DNA of 64,000 nt, from assembly GCA_965205425.1 (NCBI GenBank), contig CBDBGZ010000009.1:1131077-1195076 (forward strand). Reading direction: 5' to 3'. This document shows, piece by piece, positions 12,606-64,000 of the stretch. The notes beneath the pieces were generated by a model, which was given only the letters and a program-made list of their open reading frames with translations, had not been told where the DNA came from and did no database searches. The stretch is from Nitrosopumilus sp. GTDB taxonomy: Archaea; Thermoproteota; Nitrososphaeria; Nitrososphaerales; Nitrosopumilaceae. Each line of letters starts with the position of its first letter. Position 1 is the first letter of the stretch. Made by a program: the position numbers and the translations under genes.

Positions 12606-13169
12606 ATGCCTCAAACTAAGCCAATTGTTAGTGTTGAAAATGTTGTTGCATCTGCATCAGTAGACCAAAAAATTGATCTAATTGAAATTACTGAAAAATT
12701 TCCAGATACTGAATATCATCCAGAACAATTTCCAGGACTTGTATTTAGATTAACAAATCCAAGAACTGCAACATTGATTTTTAGAACTGGTAAAATGGTG
12801 TGTACAGGGGCTAAATCAGAAGAGATGGCAATCAAAGCAGTCAATACAGTTGTTCAAAAATTAAGAAAGGGTAAAATCAAGATCAAGAAAGATGCAGTTA
12901 TTACAGTTCAGAATATTGTAGCAGCAATTAACCTTGGTGGAAAAATCCATTTAGAAAAAGCAGCAAGAACATTACCAAGAAGTATGTATGAACCAGAGCA
13001 ATTCCCAGGGCTAATTCATAGAATGTTAGATCCTAAAACAGTTATTCTATTATTTGCATCAGGTAAATTGGTGTGTACAGGGGCTAAAAAAGAATCAGAT
13101 GTTTATCGTTCAGTTCACAATTTGCATGCATTATTAGAAGAAAAAACTCTAATGATATATGATCAATAA
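12606..13169 (+). CDS. tbp: TATA-box binding protein
   Basis: Two repeats of Y.PEQFPGL...GK.VCTGAK. Confidence 0.97.
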   Translation: MPQTKPIVSVENVVASASVDQKIDLIEITEKFPDTEYHPEQFPGLVFRLTNPRTATLIFRTGKMVCTGAKSEEMAIKAVNTVVQKLRKGKIKIKKDAVITVQNIVAAINLGGKIHLEKAARTLPRSMYEPEQFPGLIHRMLDPKTVILLFASGKLVCTGAKKESDVYRSVHNLHALLEEKTLMIYDQ

Positions 13170-13189
13170 TTTTTAGAAGATTTTAAAAA

Positions 13190-13411
13190 TTGACTAAAGA
13201 TATTTTTGAAGATGAAAAAATTAAGCTAACTCCTAAAACAGGTTTTGATTTGATTGGCATAGATTATTTTGCAGAGCCTGGAAACCAATTATATTTAATA
13301 GAACATTTTGAAATGTATCAAGATGCTTTGAATGCAAAAAAAGATAGAAAAAATCAAGACGAATATTTTGTGCTCTATAAAGGAACTGGAAATGAATTTT
13401 TCTGCAGATAG
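13190..13411 (+). CDS. hypothetical protein
   Basis: 73-aa ORF, TTG start, co-oriented with tbp. Confidence 0.6.
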   Translation: MTKDIFEDEKIKLTPKTGFDLIGIDYFAEPGNQLYLIEHFEMYQDALNAKKDRKNQDEYFVLYKGTGNEFFCR

Positions 13412-13482
13412 ATTAGAAAAATCATAAAACTTTACTAAATTTTACAATCTCTCTTATCATTCAGTTAAAAATTAAAAAAACC

Positions 13483-13733
13483 ATGCCTAGCGAAACAAGT
13501 GATTTGATTGATACATTATATGAAAAAGAAAATCCAGTTCAATCTAAACAAATTTCTAAACAAATTATTCGTAAAAGTCCAAAAGCAAAATATCAGATTT
13601 TTGATGAAATAGAGTTTACACGTGGAAGAGAAGTTCTTGGAGATCTAATTGTTCATGGAATGATAGCTTCGGGTGGAACTGACATAGATTGGCTGATTGA
13701 ACACAAAGGGAGTTTCATCGTTCTAGAATTCAA
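13483..13733 (+). pseudogene. possible PD-(D/E)xK nuclease-like gene truncated by an IS end
   Basis: TDIDWLIEHKGSFIVLEF stops making sense exactly at the CAGTACTTGGGAAAG IS terminus. Confidence 0.5.
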
Positions 13734-13816
13734 CAGTACTTGGGAAAGTAACTACCTGACATCTTCCAAATAGTATTGAGATTTTATTCTCCTAAAGAAA
13801 TCAACAATAATAACTA
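13734..13816 (-). mobile_element. ISH3-like element, 3' terminal remnant
   Basis: 18-bp end CAGTACTTGGGAAAGTAA recurs inverted at 62895-62912; minus frame ...IIVDFFRRIKSQYYLEDVR* stops right at this end. Confidence 0.5.
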
Positions 13817-13825
13817 TAACCATAT

Positions 13826-14917
13826 GTGCCAAAATCAGCTAGGAAATTAGATGGTACTTGCATTCGTATCAAGAAAGTAAGAAATGCAAACAAACACACT
13901 ACCCTTCCTGAAAAAAAATATTTGATGTTTGTAGGATTGGATGTTCACAAGAACTCTGTACAGGTGGCAGCAGTAGATGAGATTGGCAAATTGTTATTTA
14001 ACAAAAAGATTTCCAGTGATTTTTCTGCTATTAGCAAAATTACATCCAAAATTCCAAAGAACGCAAAATATGTTTTAGAGTCATCATCTGTCTGGTATGG
14101 CCTTTATAGACACATGACAGACAAATTACATCTTGATGTTATACTATCTAATCCATACAACACAAAGATAATAGCATCATCACTCAAAAAGACTGATAAA
14201 ATTGATGCGTACCATCTTGCAAATTTGCTACGAGGAGGATACATTGCAGAATCATTCGTGCCAGATCACACAATTGTGCAATACAGACAGCTTGTAAGAC
14301 ATCGACACAAGATTGTGCGCATCATTGTAAAGATGAAGAATTCCATACATGGTATTACACTACAGGAGGGAATCCATATCAAAGCAACACCATTTTCCTC
14401 AGAACACATACGTGCACTTGGAAAATTGGAGAGTTATAGAATAGATTCGTACCTACAAAGCATAAAATTTCACAAAAAGGAGGTTGCAAAAATAGATTCC
14501 ATGATACGTCGCATGGTAAATGATAATCCTGATGTGTGTATTTTGACATCAATACCTGGAGTTGGACCATACACTGCATTGAGCATATTCTCAGAAATTG
14601 CAGAGATTAGTAGATTTTCAAATTCTCACAAGTTATGTGCATATGCAGGGATTGTTCCATCGGTGAGAAATTCTGCAGATACAATACATCACGGAAGAAT
14701 TACAAAGAGAGGAAGCACCATGCTAAGATGGTTGCTAGTGGAGGCAATTCATGCACATGTTAGATACGCACCAGATAGCGACATTACAAAATTTTACAAT
14801 CGCATTAAGAAAAAGAGAGGAACCTCAAAGGCAGCAGTTGCTGCTGCATCAAAGTTATTGCGTGTCATATATTGGATGCTAAAAGAGAGGAGAGAATTTG
14901 TGCAAAATTACAGTTAG
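13826..14917 (+). CDS. IS110 DEDD recombinase/transposase
   Basis: VGLDVHK, VLESS, KTDKIDA (DEDD), SIPGVG, YAGIVPSVRNSA, GRITKRG; ORF intact. Confidence 0.95.
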   Translation: MPKSARKLDGTCIRIKKVRNANKHTTLPEKKYLMFVGLDVHKNSVQVAAVDEIGKLLFNKKISSDFSAISKITSKIPKNAKYVLESSSVWYGLYRHMTDKLHLDVILSNPYNTKIIASSLKKTDKIDAYHLANLLRGGYIAESFVPDHTIVQYRQLVRHRHKIVRIIVKMKNSIHGITLQEGIHIKATPFSSEHIRALGKLESYRIDSYLQSIKFHKKEVAKIDSMIRRMVNDNPDVCILTSIPGVGPYTALSIFSEIAEISRFSNSHKLCAYAGIVPSVRNSADTIHHGRITKRGSTMLRWLLVEAIHAHVRYAPDSDITKFYNRIKKKRGTSKAAVAAASKLLRVIYWMLKERREFVQNYS

Positions 14918-15075
14918 GACTGCAAGTCGCGTTAGAGTTTTTGAGGGACAAGGCCTCGTCTGATAACTGCGAACAATCCTAACTAGGATGAAGATAGCAT
15001 TGAGAGAATAGTCTCGTATGGATACATGTCCGCATCTTTTGATTGAAACCATTCTCTAGCGAAAGCCATGCCCTG
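14912..15075 (+). ncRNA. candidate bridge/seekRNA in IS110 3' non-coding region
   Basis: Two stem-internal-loop-stem hairpins (AGTTAGGA/TCCTAACT; AGAGAAT/ATTCTCT). The second contains ATGGATA, identical to the element's right end. Confidence 0.5.
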
Positions 15076-15120
15076 ATGTATGGAAAGAGAAGAAATGTAT
15101 AAAAACAATTCACATGGATA

Positions 15121-16082
15121 ACTCTTGTTCCCTTCTCTGGCATCTTTCTTGCATATGCCTTTGCAGGGGTCTCAAGATTATCCCAGTCAAGTGACATGTG
15201 TGGCTTTATGTGATTGTACCAGTGGACCAGCTCATCAATGGTGCCAAACCATTTCTGCTTTCTCTGAATCTCGCCGTGAAATCTTTCGAGCTTGCCATTG
15301 GTTTGAGGATGGTTCACTCTTGCCATGATATGCTTTATCTCTAATTTTACCAGTTCTTGCTCAAACTGGGATGCTCCTTTTCTCTTGTATTCTGATTGGT
15401 TTGCATAAAACTGGGAGCCATGATCAGTTAGAATTGATGCAGGCCTACCGTGCTTTGCAATTGCCTCATGTAATACTACAAGTGCGTTATCTGTTGTTGC
15501 CTCTGCAAACACTCCATGAGAAACGATAAACCTTGATGCGTCATCCTGGTAGCATAAGAACCATCTGCCATCATCTAGCTTCTTCCAGTCAGTATGCCAC
15601 ATGGAGTTTGAATATGTCCTTTCATATCGAACCCACTTTCGTCTTCTCCTCTTCTTTGGCTGAGCTTCTGCCAACCCTTCATCTCTCATAATTTTGTGTA
15701 TGGTATTGTGAGGTATGTGTGTTCCAGTAGTATCAATTATTTTCTCCAAGAATACTGCAGAACACCTGAACTTTTCAAATGTAGACTGGACAGTCTGCAC
15801 CATCTGCTCTGTGATTATTCCCTTTGGCCTTCCAGACTTGCCTAGGATTGGAACTGCACCAGTACGGCGATACCGTGAGTAGAGTTTCTGCACCCACCGA
15901 ACAGATATCTTCATGGATGAGGCAACGTCTGCGTTCTTGGCACCGTCCTCTTTTGACTTGATTATCCAGGATATCTGGATTGGATCTAACTTTTGCATAA
16001 TCTTGTGATTCTTTCCTCTTTTCCAAACGTATCTTGACTTTAGTCTGGAAATAATGGGGTGAACTAATTTGAGGATAATAGA
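15121..16082 (-). mobile_element. IS481-family element (transposase start about 15998), 3' end replaced by IS110
   Basis: N-terminal HTH; WHTDW, DDASR, ILTDHGSQF, HPQTNGKLERF, YNHIKPH (rve DDE); terminus-like GTGAACTAATTTGAGGATAATA near 16060-16080. Confidence 0.85.
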
Positions 16083-16355
16083 CTCTACAATTTCCTTGAC
16101 ATTTTCTTTTGCATCTTTAATTTTGAAAGTGTAATCAAACAGTTGCCTTCCTTCAGGCCAGGATATTTTGATGTGTTTTTTGTCAGTTACCTCAACTGAT
16201 GCAATCTGAGAATGCAACCTCTCAAAGAATATTCCTTTTGATTTCTGCTCCAATACAATTGCATTTGTGGTAACATACATGATTCCTTTACCATGTGGAG
16301 AATCGATTTCAAGCTCTTTTTCGATTTTTTCATCATTTCTTAATACTAGTGTCAT
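16083..16355 (-). pseudogene. 5' part of a host gene (PH/GRAM-like beta domain?) interrupted in frame by IS481
   Basis: The first about 92 aa of ORF 14979..16355 are unrelated to transposase (GIMYVTTNAIVLE). Confidence 0.55.
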
Positions 16356-16491: not shown

Positions 16492-17373
16492 ATGGTTACT
16501 GTTGTTCCTGAGAAAAAGGGAAATCTAACATATTATTTTCTACGACACAGCTCAGGCACTGATCAACTAAAGCGATATCTGGGAAAAACGATTCCCAAAA
16601 ATATTGAACAACTAAAAGCAGATTTTCTTTTGGAATTTTATCAGAAACAATGGAATCCTAATTTTGAATCTATTTACAAAAACTATCAAAATGAAACAAA
16701 ATCAATTCCATCTACCATAAAACTACAAAATTTTGAGAGTTTTGGAATTACATTTACTTACAATACGCAAAGGATTGAAGGATCAACACTAACTCAAGAA
16801 GATACCAAAGATTTGTTAATTCATGGTATCACTCCAAACAAAAAATCAAAAATTGACACTATTGAGACTCAGAGACATTATGATTTGTTTGTAAAACTAG
16901 TATCTTCAAAAAAACCAGATAAAATAATATTTGATACAATTCTTTCATGGCATGGAAATATTTTTGAGCAAACACAAATTGGAGAAGCAGGTTCAGTCAG
17001 AACATATGTAGTGGGAATTAAAGGCAATCCAAAAATTCAGTTTGCAACAGTTCCAGAAATCAAACCTAGATTATCTAAGTTATTTACATGGCTTAACAGT
17101 TCTAAAAAAGATATGTCTCCAGTAGAGATTGCATGCAAAGCTCACTATGATTTTGTAGGAATTCACCCTTTTGGAGATGGTAATGGAAGAATATCTAGAC
17201 TGTTAATGAATTACATTCTCTTCAAATATGATTATCCACTGATGACAATTTTTAACAAAAACAGAAAACCCTATTTCAAATCATTAGAAAGATCACAGCT
17301 AGAAGATAATTCTATACATTTCCAAAAATGGTTTATGAAAAATTATTTCAAAGAAAATAAAAAATATTTGTAA
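16492..17373 (+). CDS. Fic-domain AMPylase (class II-like)
   Basis: Canonical HPFGDGNGRISR; upstream inhibitory-type motif TQRIEGS. Confidence 0.92.
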   Translation: MVTVVPEKKGNLTYYFLRHSSGTDQLKRYLGKTIPKNIEQLKADFLLEFYQKQWNPNFESIYKNYQNETKSIPSTIKLQNFESFGITFTYNTQRIEGSTLTQEDTKDLLIHGITPNKKSKIDTIETQRHYDLFVKLVSSKKPDKIIFDTILSWHGNIFEQTQIGEAGSVRTYVVGIKGNPKIQFATVPEIKPRLSKLFTWLNSSKKDMSPVEIACKAHYDFVGIHPFGDGNGRISRLLMNYILFKYDYPLMTIFNKNRKPYFKSLERSQLEDNSIHFQKWFMKNYFKENKKYL

Positions 17374-63058: not shown

Positions 63059-64000
63059 TAACCATATGTGAATAAACAACGAAATTTAGATGGTACTGCT
63101 GATTCTATAGTTTCTAAAAGATACACCTCCAAGAAAAAACCAAAGAAAATCATTAGGACTAGAAAGACAAAACCCATGACCTATGTCGGAATTGATTTGC
63201 ACAAAGAATTCTTACAGGTCGAAACAATGGATGATAAAGGACATACATTATTCAATGAAAAAATTACAAACACCAGAGGGGATATCAAAAAAGCATTTTC
63301 TGCAATCCCAAAAAACTCAAAATGTGTAATGGAATCATCATCTGTCTGGTATGGCGTGTTTAGGTTTCTGCGAGACGAACTAGGATTTGATGTAATACTA
63401 TCAAACCCATATCACACAAAAGCAATTGCAGCATCAAAGAAAAAAACTGACAAGATTGATGCTCACATCTTGGCAGATTTGCTAAGAGGAGGATACATCT
63501 CATCTTGTCATGTACCAGAAAAAGATACCGTGCAAACAAGACAACTGGTGAGATATAGAACCAAACTAGTCCGCAACAGGACAAGGATGAAAAATTTGAT
63601 TCACAGTATAACCTTACAAAATGCAATCAAGATACCAGGAACTGCATTTTCTGATTCATATGTGCACAAACTGTTGGGATTAGATGACTATCGAATAGAT
63701 GGATATCTCAAGATGATAATATCAATCAATGATAGAATCGCAGAGTCAGACATGAGAATCAAGGATGCTCTAAAACATGATTCTAACGCACAACTCTTAG
63801 AATCAATACCTGGTGTTGGAAGATTTACTGCATTAACCATATCCTCTGAAATTGACAATATCGAAAGATTTTCAGATTCTCACAAACTGTGTTCATATGC
63901 AGGAATTGTACCATCGGTGAGAAACTCAGCTGACACCATACGCCATGGGTCCATAACAAGAAGAGGAAGTAGCATGTTACGCTGGGTTCTGGTGGAGGCA
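63059..64000 (+). mobile_element. second IS110-family element; recombinase open from GTG 63068 (ATG 63176) to window end
   Basis: YVGIDLHK, VMESS, KKTDKIDA, SIPGVG, YAGIVPSVRNSA; not in the ORF track because there is no stop within the window. Confidence 0.93.

Follow-up and report, generated by a model that had tools for sequence, protein, structure and literature searches.

To our knowledge, RNA-guided IS110/IS1111 recombinases have been characterised so far in bacteria only. The closest described systems are the IS1111 elements with a seekRNA (ISEc11, ISKpn4, ISPa11 and ISPst6; Siddiquee et al. 2024, PMC11187229) and the IS110-group element IS621 with its bridge RNA (Durrant et al. 2024, PMC11208160). 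In IS1111 seekRNAs the segment complementary to the top strand lies 5' of the segment complementary to the bottom strand, the two overlapping at the core, and the transposases are 330–350 aa long with a serine motif of the form TA, TG or SG (PMC11187229). Many IS1111 RNAs have multi-loop donor sites (Durrant et al., PMC11208160). Archaeal IS110 recombinases as such are already known, according to the available part of one source (10.1101/2024.06.21.599552). No ammonia-oxidiser example of an RNA-guided IS110/IS1111 element was found in the literature searched. The window analysed here is a 64,000-nt stretch of DNA from Nitrosopumilus sp., and the element described below is supported as a putative archaeal member of the recombinases guided by bridge or seek RNAs. 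Its boundaries, its protein domains, its covarying RNA structure and all four guide-DNA correspondences were established by comparison.

The ends of the element were set by comparing five full copies, which had their sequence in common from TAACTATAACC onward and differed upstream of it. The intact element spans 13811–15120 on the + strand including the TA cores. The left TA core (junction dinucleotide; 13811–13812, +) precedes the left end in all parsed relatives, and the element proper begins at 13813 rather than at 13817, where the initial annotation had placed it; every motif that it cited was located where it had been reported. The left end (13813–13830, +) consists of the tip ACTATA followed by ACCATATGTG, a sub-terminal inverted repeat with the GTG start codon inside and with CACATGG as its partner at the right end. 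The right end, CACATGGA (15112–15120, +), was placed by comparison of copies and relatives and contains the sub-terminal repeat and the right TA core (15119–15120). The sub-terminal inverted repeats, an IS1111 trait, read CCATATGTG on the left (13820–13828) and CACATGG on the right (15112–15118) and were kept in relatives. Non-coding DNA measured 203 nt 3' of the gene (14918–15120; earlier put at about 200 nt) and 13 nt 5' of the GTG, which is the IS1111 layout. At least five full copies and several partial ones were present in the genome, with common sharp ends and TA at both junctions. Contigs of four DNA runs, a form of data that drops rare forms, contained neither the circle junction (...CACATGGA-TA-ACTATAACC...) nor the empty site, and no RNA run was listed as containing the sequence. 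Judged by these features, 13811–15120 is very probably an intact Nitrosopumilaceae copy of the IS1111 group (IS110) that moves as bacterial IS1111/IS110 elements do.

The recombinase gene (13826–14917, +; GTG start) matched Pfam PF01548 (N-terminal DEDD, RuvC-like; E 8.9e-22, residues 36–177) and PF02371 (C-terminal Transposase_20; E 1e-22). From translation and alignment to ISCro4, the DEDD set was assigned to D39, E85, D124 and D127 (GTG numbering), which sit in MFVGLDVHK, VLESSS and KTDKIDA. The C-terminal domain aligned to ISCro4 (9t56, E 5.6e-8) and IS621 (8wt6, E 3.6e-7), serine on serine; Ser283, in GIVPSVRNSA, aligned with the SG serine of ISCro4, and the 'SA' found here is a variant of 'SG'. 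The intact DEDD and catalytic-Ser recombinase that had been read from the letters is borne out by the Pfam matches and the aligned serine.

The protein is 363 aa from the conserved in-frame GTG and 330 aa from ATG 13925; at 363 aa it exceeds the range given for IS1111 transposases (PMC11187229). The 33 additional codons (13826–13924, +) encode a Lys/Arg-rich N-terminal extension. Translation from ATG 13925 (330 aa, MFVGLDVHK), with 13813–13924 as an untranslated leader and the GTG frame open by chance, is decidedly unlikely, even though the Pfam and PDB matches to the long ORF start only beyond residue 34, a Met stands 1–3 residues ahead of VGxD in most relatives, and 330–350 aa is usual for an IS1111 transposase (PMC11187229). 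Counting against it, the GTG of the repeat was in frame with VGxDxH, with no stop, in 34 of 39 distinct relatives despite a span that varied from 17 to 65 codons, the peptide motifs (R/K)x(L/S)D(G/S) and NKQI(R/T) were conserved within the stretch, and seven relatives (L063, L029, L030, L032, L034, L033 and L031) had no Met adjoining VGxD.

A covariance model (R1) was built from homologous right ends of the same genome and of relatives, and found 98 instances in 92 sources. Its sole match in the window, at 14910–15074 (+; 130.5 bits, E 3.2e-26), marks the candidate seek/bridge RNA core, with 29 pairs in six helices. In an alignment that was itself fitted to the covariance model, 94.3% of 905 cells were paired, versus 35.8–44.8% with the partners slid; compensatory change on both sides was seen in 20 of 29 pairs, and 103 cells were changed on both sides, versus 30.4 ± 4.1 after shuffling (0/500). 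The many G-U pairs in the helices (27/31 in P2, 31/31 in P5) fix the + strand. Conserved structure and covariation among homologues, proposed earlier as a check, were in this way found.

The target-binding module (14913–14983, +) was defined by covariation and comprises P1 (14913–14918/14978–14983), which overlaps the stop codon TAG (14915–14917), P2 (14927–14931/14968–14972) and P3 (14943–14946/14954–14957), with 97.9%, 98.1% and 88.7% of cells paired, respectively, and 13 of 15 pairs changed on both sides. Hairpin 1 of the initial annotation (AGTTAGGA 14912–14919/TCCTAACT 14977–14984; TCGC 14927–14930/GCGA 14969–14972; GAGG 14943–14946/CCTC 14954–14957) is conserved as these three helices. 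The donor-binding module (14986–15031, +) comprises P4 (GGATG 14986–14990/TGTCC 15027–15031; 96.2% of cells paired) and P5 (GAGA 15002–15005/TCTC 15012–15015; 99.4%). P6 (15057–15068, +) is a hairpin, TAGC-GAAA-GCCA, with a GNRA-like loop (80% of cells paired; both-side changes in 2/4 pairs). A second hairpin drawn previously, AGAGAAT (15003–15009) with ATTCTCT (15051–15057), was rejected in that form: the letters are present, the pairing was not kept in relatives, and the conserved pairings there are those of P4 and P5. Single-sequence folding of 14905–15125 was no better than chance (z = -0.39; 69/200 shuffles folded at least as well; left end, z = -0.12), so the structure rests on covariation and not on energy. 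An Rfam scan of 13000–16000 with E up to 10 returned two chance-level matches only, far under the gathering score, and no family. No conserved TATA-like box upstream of P1, as an RNA promoter of its own, was seen by eye.

Loops were read by parse-free substring tests and from the columns of the model alignment. The right-target guide TTAGAGTTTTT (14932–14942, +), on the 5' strand of the target loop, has (A)TA plus the right flank as its reverse complement and was hypervariable among copies 95–99% identical. The left-target guide GTCTGATAACT (14958–14968, +), on the 3' strand, corresponds to the left flank, TA and the initial left-end bases (ACT); this strand always ended in TAAC or TAAT, resembling the left end. 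The target loop was the most variable part of the RNA, at 1.02 bits per column versus 0.43 elsewhere, among 37 distinct RNAs with one common donor loop. Guides were compared with flanks by the longest common substring, own versus shuffled pairing, the larger set having one element per distinct guide. Right guides scored 203 with their own flanks and 129.5 ± 6.2 with shuffled ones (n=34), and left guides 152 with their own junctions and 102.3 ± 4.5 with shuffled ones (n=25), each with 0/200,000 permutations; these figures overstate independence because many relatives are kin. A first, smaller set gave 104 versus 74.1 ± 4.5 on the left (n=14; 0/100,000) and 108 versus 90.6 ± 3.8 on the right (n=18; 3/100,000). 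Covariation of loop bases with insertion flanks, which had been put forward as a check, thus appeared as own flanks matched far better than those of other elements. Examples of left-guide matches ran to 8–10 nt, and own matches were poor (4 nt or fewer) in 10/34 right and 6/25 left comparisons. Within the same genome, the A1_40 guide matched the B_247 site at 11/11 nt, and the match of the B guide to the A1_40 site was 10 contiguous nt long.

In the window copy the right guide matched only 6 nt, in a shifted register, and the left guide 1/5 flank bases; the other copy with this guide occupies a site that does not match it. AGAGTT (14934–14939), noted earlier for its complementarity to AACTCT (15120–15125), does fall precisely within the strand whose counterparts in relatives match the right flanks; as evidence the 6 nt alone are weak. 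A run of at least 6 against the genome's four guides occurred at 12.7% of random genomic ATA sites.

The donor loop carries guides to the ends of the element. The left-end guide AAGATAGCATT (14991–15001, +), on its 5' strand, is complementary to the left-end tip and covaried with it (ACCAT, ACTAT and ATCAT; ATTAC and GTCAT via G-U pairs), scoring 4.12 with its own tip versus 3.47 with others (378/200,000 permutations). The right-end guide GTATGGATACA (15016–15026, +), on the 3' strand, contains ATGGATA, the last 7 nt of the element. The loop heptamer equalled the right-end heptamer in 20/21 aligned relatives (ATGGATA, ATAGATA, ATGAGTA, ATGGGTA), and in L037 as ATAGGTA; the equality of 15018–15024 with 15114–15120 had been pointed out beforehand. 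One table was left out of this evidence because its right ends had been located by the loop sequence itself; in it the right end was mis-set for L053, L025, L066, L095, a second match in each of L026 and L061, and the L076–L086 family.

From these comparisons we infer that an RNA would be made from the 3' non-coding region, bound by the DEDD/Ser recombinase and required for its action. The internal loop between P2 and P3 would read the target, its 5' strand pairing with the top strand (TA plus 5–9 nt of right flank) and its 3' strand with the bottom strand (4–6 nt of left flank plus TA), where 2–3 more bases would equal the first bases of the element in a handshake-like manner. The internal loop between P4 and P5 would read the donor with the same geometry, its 5' strand pairing with the left-end tip and its 3' strand with the right end plus TA, and the excised circle would be inserted by recombination at the common TA core. 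A thaumarchaeal IS1111 recombinase with a guide RNA, as first suggested from the letters, is supported by the covariation, the loop/flank matches and the IS1111 seekRNA order. The 3' region might instead act as DNA, as recombinase-binding ends, or as plain mRNA 3' structure or terminator, the loop/flank matches then arising from a site preference for likeness to the element's own ends with no RNA guiding. Several targets do resemble element ends: A2 lies inside the left end of B-type elements, the rve-IS site ATAACTCT is similar to the junction ATAACTAT, and the TAAC/TAAT ending of the target loop is left-end-like. Such an explanation is nevertheless very improbable, since pairing in the helices is kept by way of G-U pairs, which become A-C on the opposite strand or in a DNA duplex, the variable stretches of the two target-loop strands track unrelated flanks in different elements through 8–11 nt matches with no similarity to element ends, and architecture and strand order are the same as in the experimentally shown IS1111 seekRNAs (PMC11187229).

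The window copy was 98–100% identical to A2 until about 14890 and thereafter 90–98% identical to B. Judged by this profile, it is a natural chimera of an A2-type left end and recombinase gene with a B-type RNA and right end, with the joint near 14891–14905; the hexamer ACTATA at its left tip is extra and derived from the B-type left tip. The B genes of the same genome are frameshifted. Its two flanks are unrelated repeats. The left flank (13732–13810) is part of a repeat, X, of which three unoccupied copies read ...CAACAATAA-TA-ATTTCAAAG. The right flank (15121–16355, - strand) is an insertion sequence of the rve family (DDE) from which the final 63 nt are missing, as seen by copy comparison: in 18 of the 20 copies listed, 63 further nt stood ahead of ATAACTCTTG. 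The ORF of the rve IS reads into the IS1111 element only because the end of the rve IS is missing.

The best explanation for these flanks is that two copies recombined, not that one clean insertion took place. A single, ordinary guided insertion at an X/rve-IS junction that already existed would account for the complementarity of the right-target guide to AACTCT at the junction, for a second right-end fragment found at this very position in a further rve-IS copy (C7:83045), and for a contig of another run in which an element with B-type guide variants at 14934–14940 is joined to the rve IS here. It is unlikely all the same: the element-free junction (X...CAACAATAA-TA-ACTCTTGTTCC) was not found in the genome, the 63 nt missing from the rve IS are precisely those to the left of the site, which an exchange of the left half of an element inserted there would produce, repeat X has a good site of its own, AATAATTTCAA, at 10/11 to the B guide, and a second copy on contig C5 shares the X left flank. 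The other-run contig that joins an element to the rve IS is record 27 of X6 and carries 21 other letters.

IS110 elements are known for a 'junction promoter'. In the window element, an outward-facing TATA-like box, TATAAAAA (15098–15105, +), is a predicted promoter that ends 15 nt before the right end, and 24/25 distinct right ends had an A/T box, TTTAWAAA, at positions -23 to -16 relative to the end. In the predicted circle (right end-TA-ACCATAT-GTG) the G of GTG is the 23rd base after the box, the position at which transcription from an archaeal promoter would begin. The position of the box and the GTG in the left repeat would thus give a leaderless mRNA only once the circle has formed or where copies lie in tandem; this mRNA would encode all 363 aa of the recombinase, the basic N-terminal extension included, and carry the guide RNA in its 3' tail. 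We tentatively suggest that these archaeal elements may have rebuilt the IS110 junction promoter in this way, with a BRE/TATA-like box and GTG giving circle-dependent leaderless recombinase mRNA, a reading held at somewhat under even chances. In integrated copies the same box would fire outward into host DNA. The 5' strand of the donor loop recurs in the codons of the conserved LDG(T) motif, and the two covary; this repeat would let read-through transcripts fold onto the left-end tip and hide the start codon. If real, the TATA-box/GTG geometry would illustrate the adaptation of circle-dependent expression to archaeal transcription and leaderless translation.

The locus and its relatives form a well-resolved archaeal RNA family with four guide segments assigned and a TA core. 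They provide dozens of naturally occurring guides combined with a single, unchanging donor loop, a natural RNA-module swap between recombinases only 55–72% identical, and new orthologues for programmable DNA insertion. The elements come from mesophilic marine or soil ammonia oxidisers, a globally abundant group whose genomes can be very rich in insertion sequences (PMC13343696), and are therefore relevant to how plastic those genomes are.

Compared with the bacterial IS1111 seekRNA elements (PMC11187229), the window element shares the DEDD + Ser transposase, the sub-terminal inverted repeats, the long non-coding region 3' of the gene, and a top-strand-complementary segment 5' of the bottom-strand one with overlap in the target. 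RNAs usable across diverged transposases would be a further likeness (PMC11187229). The window element differs in its archaeal host (Nitrosopumilaceae), in being known from sequence comparison, in the 33-aa basic N-terminal extension of the recombinase with the GTG inside the left repeat, and in a TATA-like box at the right end where bacterial IS1111 elements have a -35. The protein shares too little identity with the solved bacterial members to be aligned with them over its full length.

Against IS621, the core is TA in place of CT, and bases beyond the core match partner DNA as they do in IS621; such extra bases are reportedly called 'handshake guides' in its companion structural paper. Two internal loops, target and donor, each reading both DNA strands around a short common core, are likewise shared with the IS621 bridge RNA (PMC11208160). 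The RNA lies at the 3' end of the window element and at the 5' end of IS621, and the strand order of the loops is reversed relative to IS621 (PMC11208160). The window element has a simple internal loop for the donor, as it does for the target, unlike the multi-loop donor sites of many IS1111 RNAs (PMC11208160). IS4321/IS5075 (IS1111) insert into the terminal repeats of Tn21-family transposons, as relayed by PMC11208160 (reference 10), and in two genomes an A2-type element that lies at TA|TGTGAA, within the left end of B- and C-type IS1111 elements, similarly suggests that the end of a different mobile element was targeted for insertion. Unlike what that source relays of IS4321/IS5075, the A2-type element has a sister IS1111 element, at its left end, as target, and the nested pair later gave the window chimera by recombination. 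As in the available account of ISPpu9 (Pseudomonas putida, IS110 family; PMC12288879), the downstream small-RNA module appears shareable with, or separable from, the transposase gene; the modular transposition of ISPpu9 is bacterial, and the window element is archaeal.

The element (13811-15120, + strand) was delimited by a BLAST search of positions 13700-15300 against the 2.2-Mb, 9-contig genome (the window is on contig C9), which returned four more full-length copies at 95–98% identity as well as disrupted and partial ones. In a junction alignment, the sequence common to the five full copies spans TAACTATAACC... through ...CACATGGATA and the DNA beyond is unrelated; the ends of relatives read TA-ACCATATGTG...CACATGGA-TA. 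The shared junctions and these ends therefore place a TA core on both sides (13811-12 and 15119-20), with sub-terminal inverted repeats CCATATGTG and CACATGG. The window copy belongs to sub-family A1. The A2 gene is the same as that of A1 at 99% identity and its 3' region is different; B proteins are 55–72% identical, with both copies frameshifted and a 3' region resembling that of A1; C proteins are 57–59% identical. A second IS1111 element, of C type (63182-64000, 57% protein identity), runs past the contig end, and its mate lies where contig C4 begins; these IS1111 repeats probably caused the assembly breaks. Protein matches at E 1e-30 or better were found in 33 of 301 genomes of the same taxonomic family, the window's own included. 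A scan of named assemblies gave 66 loci, all of which fall in archaeal records (Nitrosopumilus sp., Cenarchaeum sp., Nitrososphaerota archaeon or Nitrososphaera sp.), so that the thaumarchaeal assignment is sound.

The 3' regions of 21 elements (protein identity 42–100%) could be aligned from stop codon to right end, and 16 of the 29 pairs in the helices predicted by RNAalifold show compensatory changes. No Rfam family matched the region, and the 3' region alone had an ordinary folding energy (z = -0.39). A covariance model built on a hand-written six-helix structure (168 positions, 29 pairs) returned 38 instances in 45 sources, rising to 98 in 92 sources with named MAG loci included, and a single match within the window (14910-15074, 130.5 bits). 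In a phylum sample of 151 genomes the model matched 4, all from the window's own family, and none of the 131 genomes searched in other families (33 families). Pair statistics were taken from the 38-row alignment (32 distinct rows), itself fitted to the model: standard pairs filled 94.3% of 905 cells, against 35.8–44.8% with the 3' partners slid by 1–3 columns; both sides changed in 20 of 29 pairs; and double-change cells numbered 103, against 30.4 ± 4.1 after shuffling (0/500 shuffles). The helices lie on the + strand at 14913-18/14978-83 (P1, overlapping the stop codon), 14927-31/14968-72 (P2), 14943-46/14954-57 (P3), 14986-90/15027-31 (P4), 15002-05/15012-15 (P5) and 15057-60/15065-68 (P6). 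This strand is that of the RNA, since G-U pairs that are invariant or frequent (27/31 in P2, 28 in P4, 31/31 in P5) become A-C on the opposite strand. Every motif named in the initial annotation was located where it had been placed, and its first hairpin corresponds to P1-P3; the pairing of its second (AGAGAAT/ATTCTCT) is not kept in relatives, where P4 and P5 take its place. The covariance model that it had proposed to build from homologous right ends was built, and its helices covary.

The variable part of the RNA is the P2-P3 internal loop, whose 11-nt 5' strand reads TTAGAGTTTTT, TTGTAATTTAT, TTAAAATGCTT or TTGTAATTATT among copies otherwise 95–99% identical. Mean column entropy was 1.02 bits in this target loop and 0.43 in all other columns (37 distinct RNAs, one common donor loop). 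Reverse complemented, the 5' strand gives (A)TA and then the right flank, with contiguous matches of 9 nt in C elements (ATGTGTTTA), 10 nt at the relatives' loci L087 (ACAATCATAA) and L111 (ATAATTACAA), and 8 nt each at L030, L034, L036 and L024. The 3' strand gives the left flank, TA and the first bases of the element; 9-nt matches on this side include L024 (GGAAGTAAC), L030 (TTATGTAAC) and L034 (CAGATTAAT).

Guides were also compared without a parse, by the longest common substring of junction window and hairpin or loop, in own and shuffled pairings. A first set, with the A1/B group analyzed apart and copy C_240 left out (its guide is the same as that of copy C_C2), gave own sums of 104 against 74.1 ± 4.5 on the left (n = 14; 0/100,000 permutations reached the observed value) and 108 against 90.6 ± 3.8 on the right (n = 18; 3/100,000). 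In a larger set, where each distinct guide was represented once and elements lacking a detected end or duplicating a guide or flank were left out, the sums were 203 against 129.5 ± 6.2 on the right (n = 34) and 152 against 102.3 ± 4.5 on the left (n = 25). The loop bases thus vary with the insertion flanks, as the initial annotation had proposed to check: 0/200,000 permutations reached the observed value on either side, figures that overstate significance somewhat because kin are not independent. Own matches in this set were ≥7 nt in 14/34 right and 11/25 left cases and ≤4 nt in 10/34 and 6/25; such poor matches are expected if RNAs work in trans among copies with common donor ends. Among single copies of the genome, B_247 occupies a site matching the A1_40 guide at 11/11 nt, A1_40 one matching the B guide over 10 nt, and A1_484 one matching the A1_86 guide (7 nt) rather than its own guide. 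The best guide runs at 11 occupied right-end sites were 11, 10, 9, 7, 7, 6, 6, 6, 6, 6 and 5; random ATA sites gave runs ≥6 in 12.7% and ≥9 in 0.22%.

Two Nitrosopumilus MAG chromosomes carry many copies. The 11 copies on one (L076-L086) have right junctions CACATAGA-TT-GATTCATA or CACATAGA-TG-ATTCATAC, not ...GA-TA-, and their guide still matches TGATTCATA over 9–10 nt, which hints at a second core base from the target or a cut shifted by one base. On the other (L087-L114), at least 10 different right-target guides occur on one constant donor loop and mostly adjoin a matching site beginning CATA, in effect a reprogrammed-guide library made by nature. Contigs of three other public DNA runs (X1, X4, X6) show alternative guide letters exactly at the variable loop positions (14934-14940; A>G, G>T, G>A, T>A).

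The donor loop lies between P4 and P5 and matches the target loop in geometry. Right ends were set independently of the loop, by the invariant CACAT and its fixed spacing to an A/T box. The final heptamer of the element recurs in the donor-loop 3' strand: loop and right-end heptamers agree in 20 of 21 aligned relatives (variants ATGGATA, ATAGATA, ATGAGTA and ATGGGTA), L027 differs by one base between the two, and L037 has ATAGGTA at both. The 5' strand, AAGAUGGUAC (AAGAUAGCAU in the window), complements left-end bases 1–5 after TA and covaries with this tip (ACCAT, ACTAT, ATCAT; ATTAC and GTCAT via G-U pairs), the match averaging 4.12 for own pairings and 3.47 for others (n = 16; 378/200,000 permutations). 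In C, A2, L050 and the L087-L114 group, the two donor-loop bases after TA are the same as the two flank bases next to the element; in other families they differ. Some 30 nt in from the left end, the LDG(T) codons AGATGGTAC repeat the donor-loop 5' strand and covary with it (own mean 6.06, others 4.92; 41/200,000 permutations). Since codons and loop strand are both complementary to the left tip, one possible reading is that read-through transcripts fold back and hide the start codon.

The longest ORF (13826-14917, + strand, 363 aa, GTG start) carries both IS110-family Pfam domains (PF01548, E 8.9e-22; PF02371, E 1e-22). The C-terminal half of the recombinase aligns with the ISCro4 and IS621 transposases, for which structures are solved, with the GIVPSVRNSA serine aligned to the SG serine of both. 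In almost every relative, a whole number of codons separates the left TA from the conserved VGxDxH motif. Of 39 distinct sequences, 34 have the GTG within CATATGTG in frame without a stop (spacing 17–65 codons), the remaining five having a stop or frameshift; conserved basic peptides are encoded in between (VPKSARKLDGT...NANKHTT in the window); and seven relatives lack a Met beside VGxD. For these reasons ATG 13925 was dropped as the gene start, and the in-frame GTG at 13826, 13 nt past the first base of the element, bears out the initial placement of the start some 10 nt in from the left end. A nucleotide motif in the 5' part of the gene, GCAAACAAACAGATTAGGG (13900-13915), is conserved among relatives and encodes the peptide ANKQI(R/T).

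The A/T box, TTTAWAAA, is shared by 24 of 25 distinct right ends, where it spans -23 to -16 counted from the end (15098-15105 in the window) and is preceded by AAA at -28 to -26. In a circle, the order would be box, 13 nt, TA, ACCATAT and GTG, with the G of GTG as the 23rd base past the box. This would centre the box near -27, where archaeal TATA boxes usually lie relative to the start; in the window copy, an extra hexamer puts GTG at the 29th base. The right-end box and left-end GTG are tentatively regarded as a putative archaeal junction promoter across the circle joint. This spacing predicts a leaderless recombinase mRNA from joined ends only, whose 3' tail would contain the guide RNA; in integrated copies the box would drive transcription outward. 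Such joints were absent from contigs of four DNA runs, and a look for RNA runs carrying the sequence returned none. We infer expression of the guide RNA, circle formation and RNA dependence.

A1 is 98–100% identical to A2 up to ~14890 and 90–98% identical to B thence to the right end, and its left end consists of the 6-nt tip of B (TAACTA) followed by the A2 end. At three places in the genome and at several loci in another, A2 elements are inserted at TA|TGTGAA in the B left end, a site that the guides of A2 match. Recombination within a nested pair of this kind, where the two gene ends resemble each other, would yield A1. Nested pairs lie at C8:46854-49520 and C9:245988-248658, and at L056, L058-L060 and L062 in the other genome; as they recur with different outer flanks, the pair may move as one unit via the tip, RNA and right end of B. 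Since both B genes in the genome are frameshifted, A1, if still moving, presumably used an A-type or another recombinase with its B-type RNA.

The flanks of the window copy are unrelated in origin. Repeat X, on the left (13732-13810), is present in at least 5 copies, whose shared left boundary is sharp; in three empty copies the site is CAACAATAA-TA-ATTTCAAAG, a 10/11-nt fit to the B guide. The rve-family (DDE) IS on the right (15121-16355, - strand; Pfam rve, rve_3 and HTH_23) occurs at about 20 other genomic places and is cut 63 nt short of its end here, the missing 63 nt being present in 18 of 20 copies listed. A single guided insertion into the present place, weighed with both the guide fit at X and the truncated right flank, appears less likely; exchange between two copies, then loss, is favored, and a search for the reciprocal junctions of the flanks found none. 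Intact copies of the rve IS end ...TGTTGTATCCCAAAATCAG, and in the copy at C7:83045 a short IS1111 right-end fragment adjoins the same internal point. In two copies of X (window and contig C5) an IS1111 element lies at the same TA and the right half of X is missing, and in a 616-nt X6 contig an element bearing B-type guide letters abuts the rve IS at the same junction as in the window. By eye, an upstream ORF (12606-13169) resembles archaeal TATA-binding protein, with two similar halves, and one past the rve IS (16492-17373) has HPFGDGNGR, a motif typical of Fic-domain proteins.

A literature search found no bridge or seek RNA described for ammonia-oxidising archaea; supplementary tables might include archaeal elements. 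For 93% of the IS1111 elements in ISfinder, covariance models predict a bridge RNA (Durrant et al., PMC11208160), and 662 archaeal IS110 recombinases have been catalogued. On these grounds, the window element is well supported as an addition to the known bridge/seek RNA class, not a separate class. Its layout is that of IS1111, the gene lying between a short left end and a long non-coding right end of 203 nt (PMC11187229; PMC11208160). As in the IS1111 seekRNAs described in PMC11187229, strand order is the same, with the complement of the top strand first and an overlap at the core. The loose RNA/transposase specificity reported there for ISKpn4 and ISPa25 is in line with the presumed use of an A-type or another recombinase with a B-type RNA.
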